Shown here piece by piece: positions 9,001-15,000 of a DNA stretch of 17,601 nt (its first letter is position 1; each line of letters begins with the position of its first letter). A program made the position numbers. Source of the DNA: a virus (lineage: Duplodnaviria; Heunggongvirae; Uroviricota; Caudoviricetes); the IMG/VR virus record IMGVR_UViG_2563366990_000006; one strand, written 5' to 3'.

Positions 9001-12000
9001 GTAAAACTCAGGTTGGTGGCGGGGCAACGGCAGGCGGAGAAAACGCCACTGCTGTCGGTTACAACGCCATTGCAAACCATACGAACAGTGTTGCTGTAGG
9101 GGCTAACTCTCAGACCACTCGCCCCGATGAAGTTAATGTGGGGAATCGTGTAATTGGTGGGCTTCGTGATGGTGTTCAGGCTGCGGATGCCGCAACCTAT
9201 GGTCAGTTAGAGCGCTATCGTATTGCAGAAGAGAATGCCCGTATTCAGGGTGATGCACAGACACTGAAGTCTGCTAATACCTACACAGATAACCGGGTCA
9301 GTACCCTGGAGCGTAGTACTAATCAGCAATTCCGTCAGTTACGTGATGAGGTGGAGAAAAACCGTAAACGTGCAGATGCAGGTATTGCAGGAGCAATGGC
9401 GATGACTGCCATTCCTGTTGTTGAGGGTAAAACGTACTCCTTTGGTATGGCTGCAAGTAACTACCGTGATGAGCAGGCTATCGCAGCAGGTATGCACTTC
9501 CGCACCACTGAAAATTCTGCTGTACGTTTGAATGCTTCATGGGATACCCAGAACGGTTCAGGTGTTGCTGCGGGTATGTCTGTCGGCTGGTAATTTATTT
9601 TTTGCGGAGAACGCCAGCCGTGTTGGTTATCGGAAGCGTTCTCCGTCATCCTTCTGTCGCTGAAGACACAGCACAGTCACATTGTTCTTTTTTGTGGTGA
9701 GAGTGTGAGTGAAAAAATTCTCCGGTATATGCAGCGTGTGGTGAGAAATTCCCGCAACCCTGAATTTATGAATGAAGTTAAAGACGCCTGCCTTAAAAAG
9801 CAGGCGTTTTGTTTTGAGGCACCTGATGGCTTTCTGGTGCTGCGTTCTGTGCTCAGTGCTGATGGTATCCCTTATGTTCTGGTGTTGCTGGGCGTGTGTA
9901 CGGGGAGTAACAGCGTTGAGCGTTATCTGCCGGAGGTGAAGACATTAACCCGTCTGGCTGGCGGACGCTGGGCTGAATTTCATACGGCAAGGCGGGGATT
10001 TATCCGGCTGGGAAAACGACTGGGCTTTGAGCGAATGCCGGATGATGAGGATGGCTTCATGGTGTTCAGGATAGCGGTCTGACTGCTACAGTTTTCATCA
10101 TTGTGTTTAAACCAACATTGTAATTCACATTCTGACCCTGCTCCGGCAGGGTTTTTTGTTATCCAGGGGGCCATTATGGGTGGAAGTAAAGGCGGTGGTG
10201 ATACCAAAGTAAAACCAACAGCAGCGCAAATAGCGCAGGAAGAAGTGGCCTGGAAAGGGTGGCAGGATTATCAAAAAATCCTCCGTCCGGCAGAAGATAA
10301 CTTCATGGAAAAGGTCGATGACCTGAACAGTGAGCAGCAGTACGAAAATATCGCTGGCACAACAAATCTTGGTTATCAGAAACAGTTTGGCGAAGCACGG
10401 AAGGAGCTGGCGGGTAATCTTGCTCAGTCCGGTGTTGATCCGTCCAGTGGTCGCTTTAACGCGGTAATGAATGCGAACCAGAGTGATCAGGTAACCGGGC
10501 AGATTGACACAACCACACGGGGGCAGGTATCGCAGGCAGATAAGTATGTTGCCGGGCTACAGGATGTTGCAGCTCTCGGTTCTGGTCAGAAGGCGGATGC
10601 GTTACAGAGTTTTAACTCGCTGGCAGACAGCAGTCTGGCAAAAGCTAAATCGGACGCACAGGCTGCGTTTACGAAACAGCAGGGGCGAGCCTCTCTTGTT
10701 GGCGCTGGTTTGGGTGCGGCAGGTGCATATGCGATGCATAAGGCTGGCGGTAGCGGAGGAAGTGGCGGTGCTAAAACACCTGGCACCGGCGCTAATGCCA
10801 TTCAGCATCAGGCTCAGAACTGGAGACTGTGATTATGGAGTACGGTAAATACGAAACACTTGCGAGATACGGTTATACCGGAGCTGCCCGTCCACAGGGT
10901 GACTGGCAGACGTCAGCAGCGCTGACACGCCAACAATACGACGACTGGCGAACCAGATATTTGCCCCGCGTGGCAAGGCTGGCTGACCTTGGCGAGAACA
11001 ACAGCCTGATGAATGCACAGCTTGCCCGGGTGGGCGGCCTTGCCACTTCCAGTCTCCGTACAGCGCAGATGGCGCAGGATAACCAGATGGCGAGATACGG
11101 GGTAAGCCGCCCGGATAATCCCGACAGTAATACGCTGGGGTTACGTAATGCCCTGGCAATTGCTGGCGCGAAAAATGGTATCCGTGAAGCCGAACAGGAT
11201 CGCCAGATGAATATTCTGACGGGGGCTTCTGCACCGGCAAGACAGAAACTGAGTGTTGGCGGACAACTGGTGGCAGTGTAAGGGGGCAATATGGGATACG
11301 GTTTACTGGATATTGCAAATCAGTCGCGGCGTGAGGCATTACAGGGAATAAGTGACGCAGACAGACGACGCACAGAGATTGAGGCATCAAATAAACAACT
11401 GGCTGCTCAACAGAAAGCTCAGAAAAAACAGAATATCGGTACGGGCATTGGTACGGGGGCGGCTATTGGCGCATCCGTTGGTGGTCCTGTTGGCGCTGTT
11501 GCTGGTGCAGTAATTGGCGGCATTGCTGGTTCTTTGTTTTAAGGAGTGGTGAATGAGCGGATTTGCACAGGGGTTACTTGCCGGATTCAGCACTGTTGAC
11601 CAGGCAATGACCCGTCGTAAGGAGCTTGGTTTGCGAGAAGCACAGCTTGCTCAGCAACAGAAAAATAACGAGCGCGATTTTGAATTTGCGCAGTCTCAGT
11701 TTGAACATAATAAAGACGTTGATCAGCGGAACTTTGATTACAGAGCCAAAGTTGATGACCGCAATTACACACTGCAGGAAAGGGAGTTTAACGCCAACCA
11801 GAATTACCGGAATGCGTCGCTGGGGATGGAACAGCAACGACTCCAGTTGCAGAAATACAACCAGCGACGGCTTGAGTATAACGATATGCTGGCGCGCGAT
11901 CAGCCTGTGATGGCGGCGCTGGGAAAAGCGATTGATGCGGGTGACCATGATGCGGCTTCTCATCTGTTCGGTAAATTATCGGACGCCAATCCGCTTAAGA

Positions 12001-15000
12001 TGATGTCAACGGTAGGCTATGCTGCGAAAGCGGGTCAGGCCGTGAACAACCTGCAGAAAATCTTTGATGATAAGCCGGACAGGGCGATTGCTTCGCTGAA
12101 TACCCCGGAAAATCTCGATGTGCTTTCCGGCGTGTTTGCCCCGGAACTACAACAGCGTATTGGCATGCCTGATTCAACCGGGGAGAAAACGATAAAAGAG
12201 GCCAGGATTGGCAGTATCGTACCGGCGCAGCAGGAAGGGTACGTACTTATTGGCCTTGATCTCACATACAGCGATGGCTCCACCGCGCATAAACCTGTAA
12301 CAGAATACGGCAGTGCGCACCCTGATGATCAAACCGTGCTGGCGATACCCGTTGATAAGGCTATCGCTCAGGTCAGGGATCGCAGCAAATTTGCAGAGAT
12401 ATCGAAAAATTATGGTTATTTTATGCCGAAGCAGCAGGGACTTTCTCTGGCGAAACTTCAGGAAGTAGCCAGCAACGTAGCGGCGGATGCGATCAAGAAT
12501 GGCCGTGATGCTCAGGCTGAGGTGGATGAATTTTATGCTGCGAATGGTTTACAGCCGCATCAACAGAAAGTTCAGCAACGGAAAACGCAACAGCTTTTAC
12601 AGAAGTGGCAGACGTGGGCGGCGGGCGATCCGGTTAAACAGGAGTTTGTAAAAGAGGCTGCCGCCAATGCGCCTGCTTTGCTGGAACCTGGTCGTGAAAA
12701 GGAGGTGGAAATTTATTACCAGAATCACCTCCGGGATAAAAAGGCAGAGCATGAAAAGGCGCTGGATTATAGCGCTTCCGCAGCTGCCGAGAAGATCAAA
12801 GGCTGGATGAAGTAAAGATATGCGGCAGTAACGCGCTCCCCGTTAATATCGTTCACTTACGCCCGACCATCGTGTCGGGCTTTTTTTTACTGGAGTCTGT
12901 ATGGCTTTTTCAGATGAGCAGCGCCCTGAAGCGCAATTGGGTAACCAGAACCGCAGCAGCCTGAACATTAAGCAGCCGGGAGAAAATTACTGGCAGGATT
13001 TTTTCAGCAACCCGCAGAATGCCATTGATCACAGCACATCGTTCAGCCTCGGTGATGTATTGCCAACAATGGGTAAAGGTGTTGCCCAGTCCGTCCGGGG
13101 AACAGGGGAAATGGCCCGTGGACTCGGTGATGCGATGATTCAGAGCCCGGTAAAAACAGGGGCGCGTATTTTAAATGAGTTCAGCCGTATGGGGCTACCG
13201 GGTGTCGCAACTGTTCAGGATATTTTTGCCGGTGGCAGCAGGGGGGCTGATGAGGTCATCGATACCCTGCCTGATGGAAAAAACGTGGTCACTGATACTG
13301 TCGGTAAAGGTCTGAAAGCAACCGGTAAGGCTGTCAGTGATGGTGCCAAAGCCTCGGATGAATGGCTGACAGAACAGATGTCGCCAGGTGCTGTTCGTGC
13401 GCTGAATACGCCGATAACAGAAGGCTATGATGATTCTGCGGTCTTGCTGGCGAAGGGTGTAAACCTGATTGGTGCGCTTGTACCTGATATGGTTGCTGGC
13501 GGTGTGGCTAGAAAGGTGGGTGATGTCACACTGCGAAAAATGCTGACCGCCGGGCTGGAGAAAAAATACATCGCGGCAGGGATGCAGCCGGAAAGAGCCA
13601 CGGCACTGGCAGCAGAAGCTGTCGATAAAAAAATGCCGGATTTATTCCAGGCGGGCCTGATCACCCATTCCACAGCCAGTGCACAGGGGCAGAGTGCAAT
13701 GGCGGCAGCAGATGCTGTTCTTAATGCGGATTACTCTGAGCTGGCGCAGTCACCGAAATTTCAGCAGACGTTTTTGTCCATTGACGCCGACCCGCAGCAT
13801 GCACAGCTTACTGATCGCCAGAAAATGGATCTGGCAAAAGAGCGTGTTGCCGATGAGGTGCGCGCGCAGCTGGCAACCGATCCTGAATTGCTGGCTGTGA
13901 ATGCCATGGCGGCAAAACTGGGTGACGCACAACTGTTTAATCTGGTGACACGAGGCACAGCGAAGACCGTTAAAAGCGGCATTGTCAGAAATGCCACGGA
14001 ACAGGGCGTAATTAACGGGGCACAGAACGCCTATTCGCGCTATCAGGAAAACATGGCATTGCGTGAGACCGCCGGAATGGATGTATCGCCATGGGAGGGG
14101 GTGACTGACGCAGGGATTGAAGGCACTGTTTTCGGTGCTGCGATGGGGGCTCCATTCGGTGCGGTTGCCGGATATCGTGGCAGACGTCAGGCCGCAGAAG
14201 AAGCAGCCATGCGTGATGCTGAAACCGTGCAGCAGGACGACGCAGCCCCGCAACCCGAACCGGTTGATCCGGTGGCACAGCATCGTGAATCCATGCAGGG
14301 CATGAATCGCGAGCAGCTTCTGGAACAGTATGCTGATGCGGATATGGCAACAGAGGGTGACGCATCCGCAGCTCATCGCCGGGAAGCTGCCAGCCAGTTG
14401 TTGAATGAACTGGACGAACAGGCGAAGCGACAGGCTGTGATGAATGAGCTGAAGGCGAAGCCGCGTTCTGAACTGCTTGAGGAATACCGCAGACTCAGCC
14501 AGAAAGAGGAGCGCACCGAGACTGAAGAACAACAGTTTCAGGCAATACGAGAAGTCATTCGCCCACAACAGGAAGTGACGCCGGAAGCACAGTCACAGCC
14601 TGAAAATGCGGAGGATGGTAACGGGAGCATTTACCCGACGGTGCGGTTCCGGGACCCGAATGAAGTCCGCATTGAAATTAACGGGAATGGTGCGTCCAGA
14701 CCAGCGGAACGCATTGAAAAGGTGCGCCCGGACAACCGTTATTTCACGGATGAGAAAAGCGCCATGGGGAGTGATGTTTTCCGTAATGCCGCCGCTACCG
14801 GCCTGAAACCGTCCGTAGTGAAGAAAGGCGAGAATCAGTATGCCGTTGAAATGGATAATCCTGCGTTCTCTGAAGATGTGGCAACGGAAACCATTAACAC
14901 CCTGGCTGACGGAGAGCGTATTGCTGATGCTGACCCGATGGAGCAGCCCGCGTTCATGCGTGACCCGCGATTCCGTGGTTTCACGGGGGATGATACGGAG

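Follow-up and report, generated by a model that had tools for sequence, protein, structure and literature searches.

Gene content and order at the locus

Judged by its sequence, the window (the whole stretch of 17,601 nt analyzed here) is the tail-distal late region of a podophage of the 933W/Sp5/phi24B type, and 186 Stx-type phage records match the region at 87-96% DNA identity. All features described below lie on the plus strand. The homologue of Sp5 ORF75 (ECs1237; 9705..10082), which encodes a small GNAT-fold protein, is the first gene of a conserved module. It is followed by a hairpin of the intrinsic-terminator type (T1, 10134..10157; 8 pairs and a T6 run), which separates it from four genes: g1 (10176..10832, 218 aa), g2 (10835..11281, 148 aa), g3 (11291..11542, 83 aa) and g4 (11553..12815, 420 aa). 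A second hairpin of this type (T2, 12861..12888; 7 pairs, 6 of them G-C, and a T8 run) precedes the gene for a giant polyvalent protein, whose first 1,567 codons (12901..17601) are present before the reading frame runs off the window.

The four-gene block has already been partly characterized in near-identical phages. The genes g1 to g4 are direct orthologues of Sp5 ORF76, ORF77, ORF78 and ORF79 and of phi24B gp51, gp50, gp49 and gp48, and the giant gene corresponds to Sp5 ORF80 and phi24B gp47; the runs ECs1238-1242 and vb_24B_44-48 have the same order and both hairpins. Protein lengths agree with those of Sp5 ORF76-80, and identity to the phi24B orthologues is 95-99% for g1-g3 (97% for g1, 98.6% for g2) and ~80% for g4. 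The window differs from Sp5 and phi24B in the C-terminal ~100 aa of g4, which occur as two alleles and are here of the ArgO145 type, together with the ArgO145-type variant of T2. It also differs by upstream insertions: ISEc8, which lies inside the late region, hok and a yadA-like gene.

The sequence-only reading of this region had described the genes as tightly packed, with overlapping or adjacent stops and starts. Adjacency holds, as the gaps between successive genes from g1 to g4 are 2, 9 and 10 nt and each of the four has its own Shine-Dalgarno site; g1 and g2 would overlap only if GTG 10829 were the start of g2 in place of ATG 10835. That reading also placed a Shine-Dalgarno site close behind each hairpin, and such sites are found there: GGGGG (10166..10170) after T1, 5 nt before ATG 10176, and GGAG (12892..12895) after T2, 5 nt before ATG 12901. 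In some relatives the g1 site is GAGGAG. A peptide from phi24B virions that spans residues 2-21, unacetylated and with Met removed, confirms the start of g4 at 11553, and the start of g1 at 10176 is backed by an N-terminus, MG(G)KGG, kept in the Aeromonas, Vibrio and Ralstonia homologues.

The order nozzle, needle, ORF75, g1, g2, g3, g4, giant is found in 36 of 38 relatives with 46-58% g1 identity, the remaining two being incomplete loci, and the nozzle-to-giant order is also kept in Aeromonas phiARM81mr and Vibrio 1.205.O. In Aeromonas and Vibrio as well as in 38 further relatives, g1 is directly preceded by an ORF75 homologue. As read from gene order, the conserved module begins one gene before g1, at ORF75, and takes in the giant gene. 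The ORF75 homologue had no match in Pfam or NCBIfam, and when its AF2 model (pLDDT 74, pTM 0.67) was searched against the PDB with Foldseek, each of the best 50 matches was a protein or domain with the GNAT fold, most of them acetyltransferases. It is not a virion protein: it is not among the proteins detected by mass spectrometry in phi24B virions. The Sp5 mutants found to be defective do not include the ORF75 deletion.

The products of the block genes match PHROG families at 1e-44 to 1e-191. For g1 these are phrog_611 (1.5e-119) and phrog_8003, a "virion structural protein" family (2.7e-8); g2 matches phrog_596 (1.3e-83), g3 phrog_594 and g4 phrog_601 (1.4e-191). No family of non-structural proteins was found in the profile searches with g1-g4. 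Neither was any sequence, profile or fold link to characterized ejection proteins, including those of T7 and P22. The proposed coiled or glycine-zipper composition is borne out in three of the products. The g1 protein begins with MGGSKGGG and has a hydrophobic, Gly/Ala-rich C-terminal segment. The g3 protein consists of a charged helix followed by a C-terminal membrane-type segment with a glycine zipper (Gly-zipper_YMGG, PF13441) that scores 25.7 bits, below the Pfam cut-off of 28.9, and resembles the glycine-zipper parts of PdsO and YiaD. The g3 protein is often mislabeled "bacteriocin"; the Pfam match of g3 to Bacteriocin_IIc is sub-threshold (19.5 bits). For g4, searches of Pfam, the PDB and known folds gave no match, and a low-confidence AF2 model (pLDDT 66; helix 4-129, strands 213-266) shows a 125-residue helix at the N-terminus, a small beta domain, which is conserved, and a C-terminus that varies. 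The giant protein, correctly predicted to follow the block, aligns with positions 1-1567 of the phrog_616 profile (2793 positions) and has LPD5 and LPD1 domains within the window (Pfam search); at full length, as Sp5 ORF80, it has 2,793 aa.

Virion content and deletion phenotypes in phi24B and Sp5

The experimental data considered here were all obtained with relatives such as phi24B and Sp5, the prophage of the window being known from its sequence. In CsCl-purified phi24B virions, whose proteins were identified by mass spectrometry, the orthologues of all four genes were detected, three of them at roughly 20-45 copies. These three are gp51 (g1; 82 PSMs, about 22-27 copies), gp50 (g2; 83 PSMs, about 36-48 copies) and gp48 (g4; 179 PSMs, about 30-37 copies). 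A gp51 virion peptide, VKPTAAQIAQEEVAWK, is identical to the g1 sequence in the window. The g3 orthologue gp49 was present in trace amounts (6 PSMs in a virion batch digest) and was dismissed by the authors as contamination; tryptic peptides of 7-30 aa cover only 39 of the 83 residues of g3. The giant gp47, for which a Muf-C metallopeptidase is reported, was abundant at about 19-23 copies.

None of the g1-g4 orthologues was placed in the cryo-EM atomic model of the phi24B capsid and tail. The giant gp47 is missing from the map as well, and that study proposed it to be an ejection protein. No ordered internal core was seen by cryo-EM, and diffuse density in the adaptor lumen is gone in ejected particles. 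Similarly, the GP4 homologue of g1 is absent from the PDB, whereas the GP4 nozzle is present (8jov).

In Sp5, particles lacking ORF79 (g4) or ORF80 (giant) contain DNase-resistant DNA at the wild-type level and yield no plaques and no lysogens. The g4 orthologue is thus essential after DNA packaging. Deletion of ORF76 (g1) severely reduces lysogenization, and ORF77 (g2) and ORF78 (g3) are dispensable, their single deletions not being among the defective mutants. In Sp5, then, g4 is indispensable, g1 important, and g2 and g3 accessory.

The Sp5 study drew a different conclusion from these mutants. The ORF79 and ORF80 deletion particles, although they contain DNA, were not labeled by an anti-tail-fiber antibody, which was read as a tail-assembly defect and would make g4 and the giant protein tail-assembly or head-completion factors, found in virions as minor tail components. 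The paper gives no image data for the negative immuno-EM result, and even wild-type Sp5 short tails are visible only occasionally. Moreover, all tail density in the phi24B map (2.7-5.1 Å) is assigned to six other proteins: the portal, the two adaptors gp64 and gp62, the nozzle, the fiber and the needle. A 22-nm tail is too small to conceal a 47-kDa protein in about 30 copies and a 300-kDa protein in about 20, and the DNase-resistant DNA of the mutants argues for a closed portal vertex. We therefore consider a tail-assembly role improbable.

A proposed role as internal, ejected virion proteins

The late genes of Stx phages are established to be under Q control, and the phi24B annotation includes Q, pR', qut and tR'. 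The explanation that we find, taken as a whole, more probable than not is that the four-gene block is a distal stretch of the pR', Q-antiterminated late operon of a 933W/Sp5/phi24B-type T=9 podophage, present as an E. coli prophage, and that g1, g2, g4 and probably g3 encode internal virion proteins that likely accompany the DNA. The virion-internal, ejection-like character suggested earlier draws support from the phi24B virion content, the absence of these proteins from the atomic model and the Sp5 phenotypes. We infer internal location, release with the DNA and membrane roles, as well as the function of the terminators.

According to this proposal, g1, g2, g4 and probably g3 would lie inside the capsid or in the portal channel, packed alongside the giant polyvalent protein and outside the ordered shell and tail. 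Upon loss of the tail needle at the receptor, they would most likely exit via the tail, before or with the DNA, and would help the genome through the envelope. The g3 glycine zipper and the hydrophobic g1 C-terminus would then be membrane-inserting parts, the 125-residue helix of g4 a candidate periplasm-spanning or organizing element, and the giant protein would contribute enzymatic and anti-defense domains.

Several known systems resemble this arrangement. The ejection proteins gp7, gp20 and gp16 of P22 and Sf6 are, like the g1-g4 orthologues, virion proteins in tens of copies (12, 12 and 30 in P22) that are not resolved in the ordered structure and are needed for infection, not for assembly or packaging; the portal also has a long barrel. 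However, no sequence or fold similarity to g1-g4 was found, the present set combines four small proteins, two of them dispensable, with a polyvalent protein of 2,793 aa, and ejection is putative. T7 offers a parallel in gene order: gp14, gp15 and gp16 (with gp13, gp6.7 and gp7.3) form a similar small-to-very-large run after the tail genes, and an enzymatic cell-wall domain is part of the largest protein, much as gp47 carries the reported metallopeptidase. T7 differs in that the phi24B portal has no ordered core stack, and no homology was found.

A related arrangement is found in Ralstonia GP4 and the Burkholderia phages Bcep22 and JC1, where genes for virion-associated proteins likewise lie between the nozzle and a DarB-like giant. 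The 277-aa virion-associated protein of GP4, whose gene directly follows a GNAT gene, is homologous to g1 (shared N-terminus MGGKGGGD; E = 8e-5 pairwise), and in the Bcep22-like JC1 the equivalents next to the giant are virion-associated by mass spectrometry. This lineage differs by a PAPS-reductase gene inserted in the run, and g4 has no detectable similarity to the 509-aa protein of GP4 (hhalign probability <1%).

The DarB-like annotation of the giant in GP4 and JC1 also points to the Dar system of P1 (DarB with Hdf, DarA, DdrA, DdrB and Ulx). In P1, DarB is a huge protein injected from the capsid, and its incorporation depends on several small head proteins. By analogy, g1-g4 could be head-internal loaders or organizers that serve mainly for recruiting, folding or arranging the ~20 copies of the 300-kDa giant in the procapsid, and not builders of a trans-envelope conduit. 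The strict linkage of g1-g4 to the giant gene across genera, the shared phenotype of the Sp5 ORF79 and ORF80 deletions and the phi24B copy numbers, which are of the same order for the small proteins as for the giant, are consistent with such a task. P1, however, is a myovirus in which Dar is non-essential, whereas g4 and the giant are essential in Sp5; even a permissive K-12 host does not make the giant dispensable, and it must therefore be more than antirestriction cargo. We found no homology to P1, and none to Hdf, DarA, DdrA or DdrB has been reported. With their glycine-zipper segments, g3 and g1 look more like membrane-active proteins than like chaperones. A loading function would be compatible with g1-g4 also being ejected, but we regard it as unlikely to be their main task.

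Hairpins T1 and T2 within the late operon

Strong terminators had been proposed immediately before the genes at 10176 and 12901, and a terminator scan of the window, RNA folding and conservation all bear this out. The scan reported plus-strand sites with a T1 stem-loop at 10134-10153 (8 pairs, 5 G-C; T6 run ending at 10157) and a T2 stem-loop at 12861-12880 (7 pairs, 6 G-C; T8 run to 12888), among 28 terminator-like sites in the whole window against 17.0 ± 3.6 expected. Compared with dinucleotide shuffles, T1 folds at -16.5 kcal/mol (z = -4.0) and T2 at -13.8 kcal/mol (z = -2.4). Each of ~50 related E. coli prophage loci has both hairpins; the T1 stem is invariant among them, and T2 is found in every locus whose giant-gene start was located (46/50). 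In the related loci 56 of 56 cells of the T2 stem pair, and two of its seven pairs are altered on both sides (G-C/G-U/A-U and A-U/G-C). On these comparisons, T1 and T2 are genuine intrinsic-terminator-type elements.

The U-run of T2 ends 12 nt upstream of the start of the essential giant gene, and the scan found no promoter-like site near T2. Read-through of T2 is therefore required, and the antitermination-dependent late transcription suggested earlier, which also fits lambdoid Q/pR' biology, is demanded by this placement. Q-modified RNA polymerase would have to pass through both hairpins. Unmodified polymerase would likely be stopped there, arriving from accessory genes expressed in the lysogen (lom, hok, the yadA-like gene and ORF75) or from an accessory-gene hot spot before the giant gene; in phi24B lysogens, lom expression is independent of induction. 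The hairpins may also stabilize the 3' ends of processed mRNA.

The pair of terminators nevertheless does not delimit a functional unit and is not an operon boundary, because the conserved module starts at ORF75 (9705-10082) and includes the giant gene, and because hairpins of this kind recur throughout the Q-antiterminated late operon. The bracket may even be incidental, representing generic late-operon punctuation or leftovers or boundaries of accessory cassettes and no regulatory device for g1-g4; to us the chances of this are about even, and it concerns the bracket alone, being compatible with our explanation of the proteins. In phi24B, plus-strand hairpins of comparable strength trail the portal, capsid, cement and lom genes. 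Only in the E. coli lineage is the conserved ORF75-g1 pair interrupted by T1; non-E. coli relatives lack this hairpin, their ORF75-g1 gap being 0-10 nt long or free of terminators. The gap between g4 and the giant gene is a hot spot in relatives, with 1-3 kb of variable genes closed by the pre-giant hairpin. A purely incidental origin fits T2 less well, since its compensatory substitutions and kept position indicate selection on the hairpin itself: a hairpin at the equivalent position, ~35-60 nt before the giant gene, is found in 16 of 24 more distant relatives, including some in which the g4-giant gap is empty.

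A conserved module beside the giant gene

The four genes lie in DNA (10100-12900) that matches 186 phage records at 87-96% identity, nearly all of them Stx-converting short-tailed phages of the 933W/Sp5/phi24B type, and E. coli strain 04-00955 has a prophage with 100% identity over about 5.1 kb around this interval. Upstream are the tail nozzle gene (499-2208; phi24B gp57), whose product matches the solved GP4 nozzle 8jov (2.4e-53), and the central needle gene (2205-3473; phi24B gp56), with a Phage_Tail_Tip domain. Downstream is the giant polyvalent protein gene (from 12901; Sp5 ORF80, phi24B gp47), of whose 2,793 aa the N-terminal 1,567 residues, with LPD5 and LPD1 domains, match phrog_616. 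Judged from full-length matches and from the same order beside the giant gene, g1-g4 are the orthologous group of Sp5 ORF76-79: g1 (10176-10832) and ORF76 both encode 218 aa, g2 (10835-11281) and ORF77 148 aa, g3 (11291-11542) and ORF78 83 aa, and g4 (11553-12815) 420 aa against 421 aa for ORF79. The phi24B orthologues, vb_24B_44 to 47 or gp51 to gp48 of a 2026 preprint, are 97% (gp51), 99% (gp50), 95% (gp49) and 80% (gp48) identical to g1-g4, respectively. Each gene has its own Shine-Dalgarno (SD) site, and the gaps from g1 to g4 are 2, 9 and 10 nt; of the overlapping or adjacent packing named in the sequence-only reading, it is the adjacent form that holds.

All four products match PHROG families (g1, 611, E = 1.5e-119; g2, 596, 1.3e-83; g3, 594, 1.8e-44; g4, 601, 1.4e-191) that carry an unknown-function label, and g1 has a second PHROG match, to a "virion structural protein" family (2.7e-8). 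Several existing labels were rejected. In PQ600364.1 the product names mismatch the genes, which disposes of (i) "portal protein" on the g1 homologue, (ii) "N4-family major capsid protein" on the 90-aa g3 homologue and (iii) "terminase large subunit" on a YadA-like gene. The label "transcription initiation factor/seryl-tRNA synthetase-like" on g4 is probably a coiled-coil artefact.

A search for homologous proteins gave only near-identical E. coli sequences among the best 120 matches listed. Among 38 viral contigs with a g1 homologue at 46-58% identity (G+C 46-61%), 36 have the full order nozzle, needle, ORF75 (the gene at 9705-10082), g1, g2, g3, g4 and giant; the exceptions, L105 and L114, are incomplete loci. 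The nozzle-to-giant order also occurs in Aeromonas phiARM81mr and Vibrio phage 1.205.O. Further afield, g1 is related to a 277-aa virion-associated protein of Ralstonia phage GP4, which shares the N-terminus MGGKGGGD and is encoded between a GNAT gene and a DarB-like giant, and mass spectrometry shows the counterparts in the Bcep22-like phage JC1 to be virion-associated.

The module varies most between g4 and the giant. In the more distant relatives (L099-L136) 52 nt to 2.9 kb lie between the two genes, and the long gaps (1-3 kb) hold unrelated genes on either strand, encoding KilA-N/ANT, UPF0257 lipoprotein, NA37 nucleoid-associated, MBL-fold and HATPase-like proteins. In these relatives the gap is an accessory-gene hot spot with a strong hairpin at its downstream edge. 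Among the Stx phages, the last ~100 codons of g4 plus the intergenic region (~12500-12900) occur as two unrelated alleles: 12601-12800 has no blastn match to phi24B, yet is 84-95% identical to ArgO145. The flanks are 93-100% identical to both phages, and the hairpin before the giant gene (T2) is kept in both alleles.

Virion proteins, with g4 needed after packaging

The sequence-only reading took the four products for virion-internal, ejection-like proteins. Cryo-EM and virion proteomics of phi24B (bioRxiv 10.64898/2026.04.10.717836) bear on this. In a batch digest, gp48, gp50 and gp51 gave 179, 83 and 82 PSMs, with 101 for the portal, 42 for the nozzle and 746 for the giant gp47; estimated copies per virion are ~30-37 for gp48, ~36-48 for gp50, ~22-27 for gp51 and ~19-23 for gp47 (10.64898/2026.04.10.717836). 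With these orthologues as proxy, g1, g2 and g4 are clearly present in virions and g3 at trace level. The gp48 peak was in the gel slice beside the 45-kDa capsid band (10.64898/2026.04.10.717836), and because its N-terminal peptide (residues 2-21) is present, gp48 is unprocessed except for removal of Met.

The 83-aa g3 orthologue gave 6 PSMs and was set aside by the authors as a "bacteriocin" contaminant (10.64898/2026.04.10.717836); only 39 residues of g3 fall in tryptic peptides of usable size. We rejected the bacteriocin assignment, a label that g3 also bears in some database records. A class II bacteriocin should have a double-glycine leader, linked genes for immunity or export, and a Bacteriocin_IIc score above threshold. 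For g3 that score is 19.5 bits (cut-off, 27.1), the resemblance is limited to a glycine-rich helix, and the gene is fixed in the virion module in all relatives. Other Pfam and NCBIfam matches of g3 were likewise sub-threshold and of glycine-zipper type.

None of the four appears to belong to the ordered particle. The phi24B tail is fully accounted for by portal gp72, adaptors gp64 and gp62, nozzle gp57, fibres gp61 and needle gp56, and gp47, gp48, gp50 and gp51 are entered as "ND" under structure-based abundance in the copy-number sheet (10.64898/2026.04.10.717836). The composition given for the phi24B tail and capsid leaves the four products out as well. For GP4, the 277-aa g1 homologue and a 509-aa virion protein are in no PDB entry, whereas the nozzle is. 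Therefore, two independent structures of this virion type leave such proteins out, which places g1-g4 outside the ordered shell and tail.

Genetic data are available from Sp5, in which each gene was deleted in frame (Mondal et al. 2016, PMC5155283). Deletion of ORF79 or ORF80 abolished plaques and lysogens, while DNase-resistant DNA remained at the wild-type level and heads looked normal (PMC5155283). Without ORF76, infectivity remained, but lysogens were obtained only with concentrated lysates; deletions of ORF75, ORF77 and ORF78 are absent from the list of defective mutants (PMC5155283). Judged from Sp5, the pattern expected of ejection proteins, dispensable for head assembly and packaging yet needed for infection, holds for g4 and in part for g1, but not for g2 and g3, whose deletions are viable. 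ORF79 and ORF80 had been called tail-formation genes on the ground, data not shown, that mutant particles were unlabelled by anti-fibre antibody (PMC5155283).

Since these proteins are present in tens of copies, lie outside the ordered shell and tail, are genetically needed only after packaging and are always linked to the giant gene, g1-g4 are best explained as internal proteins that would leave the particle together with the DNA. The genes have been described before, but without assignment to the ejection class; the phi24B authors proposed only gp47 as an ejection protein, and they report diffuse unassigned density in the adaptor lumen that is gone in ejected particles (10.64898/2026.04.10.717836). 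There is a serious rival: by analogy with the Dar system of P1, the small proteins may load the giant, a role that is compatible with ejection.

If g1-g4 do exit with the DNA, the candidate membrane-inserting parts are the glycine-zipper C-terminus of g3 and a Gly/Ala-rich hydrophobic segment of g1, and the products may then contribute to a conduit. For g4, a low-confidence model has a helix over residues 4-129, which if straight would be ~19 nm long, and after it a small beta domain where the g4 family is most conserved. By a rough estimate, a T=9 shell would hold ~(9/7)^1.5 times lambda's 48.5 kb, or ~70 kb. The matching Stx-type phages have genomes of 58-66 kb, so that on this rough figure there would be room for the ~8 MDa of protein implied by the preprint copy numbers.

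The closest functional analogues are the ejection proteins of P22/Sf6, with similar copy numbers, disorder and a barrel-bearing portal, followed at a greater distance by the T7 core set. Homology to T7 gp14/15/16 or P22 gp7/20/16 was not found in PDB and Pfam searches with g1, g2 and g4, a Foldseek search with g4 or a Pfam search with g3. More broadly, g1, g2 and g4 had no meaningful match in single-sequence PDB searches and no relevant one in Pfam or NCBIfam. A g4 family profile of 39 sequences matched nothing in PDB or Pfam and was negative by hhalign against the GP4 509-aa virion protein, and a single-sequence AF2 model of g4 (pLDDT 66) had no Foldseek match at E <= 0.001. Homology to a non-structural family, which would speak against a virion role, was likewise absent for g1-g4 in the PHROG, Pfam and NCBIfam searches.

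Shiga toxin genes are spread by short-tailed Stx phages, and we know of no mechanism by which the DNA of these phages crosses the envelope in E. coli. Placing the four upstream genes in the internal set makes them concrete candidates for the entry machinery, with g4 essential and g1 important, and reinterprets the "tail formation" genes of Sp5. As the six-gene module is also conserved in Aeromonas, Vibrio and other prophages, results on it would be relevant outside E. coli too. In practical terms the gain is modest, since both the genes and their presence in virions were already on record.

ORF75 and the N-termini of the small proteins

The model of ORF75 (9705-10082) predicts a GNAT fold: its 50 best PDB matches are GNAT without exception, with N-terminal acetyltransferases and AtaT-type toxins at the head of the list (probability 0.96-1.00, mostly 1.00; query-normalised TM 0.40-0.62; best E = 2.7e-4). 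Our test for a GNAT asked for the fold plus either a family HMM match or a motif for binding acetyl-CoA. ORF75 has no Pfam or NCBIfam match, inspection by eye turned up no canonical Q/RxxGxG/A motif, and an hhalign comparison with the GP4 GNAT was negative, so that the assignment comes from the predicted fold only. ORF75 is a fixed part of the module in all relatives; in GP4 and JC1 its position is taken by a recognisable GNAT.

In most relatives all four small proteins start with Met-Gly, and in the others with Met-Gly, Met-Ser or Met-Ala. Starts in L099-L136 are MGKGG.. for g1, MGQA.. or MGYA.. for g2, MGYGL.. for g3 and MGVQGLADGFLAGF... for g4. In the window they are MG, ME, MG and MS, with Met-Glu of g2 as an exception to the pattern. 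The idea of N-terminal acetylation did not hold for phi24B gp48, whose N-terminal peptide is unacetylated although acetylation was a searched modification; this check covers gp48 alone, since in the authors' six-frame database the entries for g1-g3 run beyond their true starts.

A broader reading would join ORF75, g1-g4 and the giant in one self-contained entry cassette, in which g1-g4 would form a new ejection family and the GNAT-fold ORF75 would modify their N-termini, exposed once Met is removed. We consider it improbable as a whole. It would cover the T=9 GP4/Stx-type podophages of many genera, with an ejection family unrelated to the T7 and P22 sets, and if it were true, modification by ORF75 in the producing cell could tune the packaging, stability or membrane insertion of g1-g4.

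Terminator hairpins in the late region

Two plus-strand hairpins had been proposed to bracket g1-g4: T1 (10134-10153, followed by a T6 run), which folds at -16.5 kcal/mol (z = -4.0), and T2 (12861-12880, followed by a T8 run), at -13.8 kcal/mol (z = -2.4). Both are real, and each is followed by an SD site 5 nt before the ATG. In ~50 related loci the T1 stem is invariant, and T2 has three stem variants that all still pair, differing in the outer pair (G-C/G-U/A-U), the sixth (A-U/G-C) and the seventh (C-G/U-G). Every cell of the T2 alignment (100%) pairs, with two-sided changes at 2 of 7 pairs; in slid registers only 29-43% of cells pair. Thus, as G+C-rich hairpins with a U-run and a stem kept in relatives, T1 and T2 are of intrinsic-terminator type. 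In HM208303.1, the giant gene is annotated from an in-frame ATG inside the T2 hairpin. No Rfam family was found within the window.

The bracket as a functional unit did not stand. In phi24B, equally strong plus-strand hairpins follow the portal, capsid, cement-protein and lom genes, the first three at 13556-13579, 15959-15976 and 16399-16417 of the 20000-40000 segment compared, directly after the portal, major capsid and cement-protein genes. That segment holds 36 terminator-like sites where 19.9 +/- 4.2 are expected, so that such punctuation runs through the whole late operon. T1 is confined to the E. coli lineage and separates two ancestral module genes, ORF75 and g1, which are 0-10 nt apart in most relatives. 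Of 24 representative loci, 16 have a strong hairpin at the edge of the g4-giant hot spot, 35-60 nt upstream of the giant. Because of the phi24B hairpins, the position of T1 inside the module and this hot spot, the four genes between T1 and T2 are not a unit. The alternative that T1 merely ends a moron cassette is weakened, as the preceding ORF75 is itself an ancestral module gene.

Between the end of the T2 U-run and the giant ATG there are 12 nt, and a window scan found no promoter-like site near T2. Because the giant is essential and abundant, late transcription would have to read through T2. Such read-through fits antitermination by Q from pR', an established mechanism in Stx phages, the elements of which are annotated in phi24B. 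The hairpins likely halt unmodified polymerase arriving from accessory genes expressed in the lysogen, and expression of lom in phi24B is independent of induction. They may also stabilise 3' ends.

The window carries accessory DNA in this late region. An ISEc8 element (IS66 family; 5417-7859), with HTH_Tnp_1, TnpB_IS66 and DDE_Tnp_IS66 ORFs, lies between lom and hok; it is missing at this position from the 04-00955 prophage, which is otherwise identical, and could possibly exert polarity on late transcription. Between lom and ORF75 there is also an accessory cluster of a Hok/Gef-family toxin gene (7896-8036, from the RefSeq annotation of identical DNA) and a gene for a 401-aa YadA-like trimeric autotransporter (8388-9593; YadA_anchor, 1.3e-11). 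This cluster is shared with phiSTEC1589-Stx1c and absent from Sp5, phi24B and ArgO145. On the minus strand, 10-pair G+C-rich hairpins are found just downstream of hok (8068-8045) and inside ORF75 (9807-9784), the latter with a weaker plus-strand site at 9789-9806.
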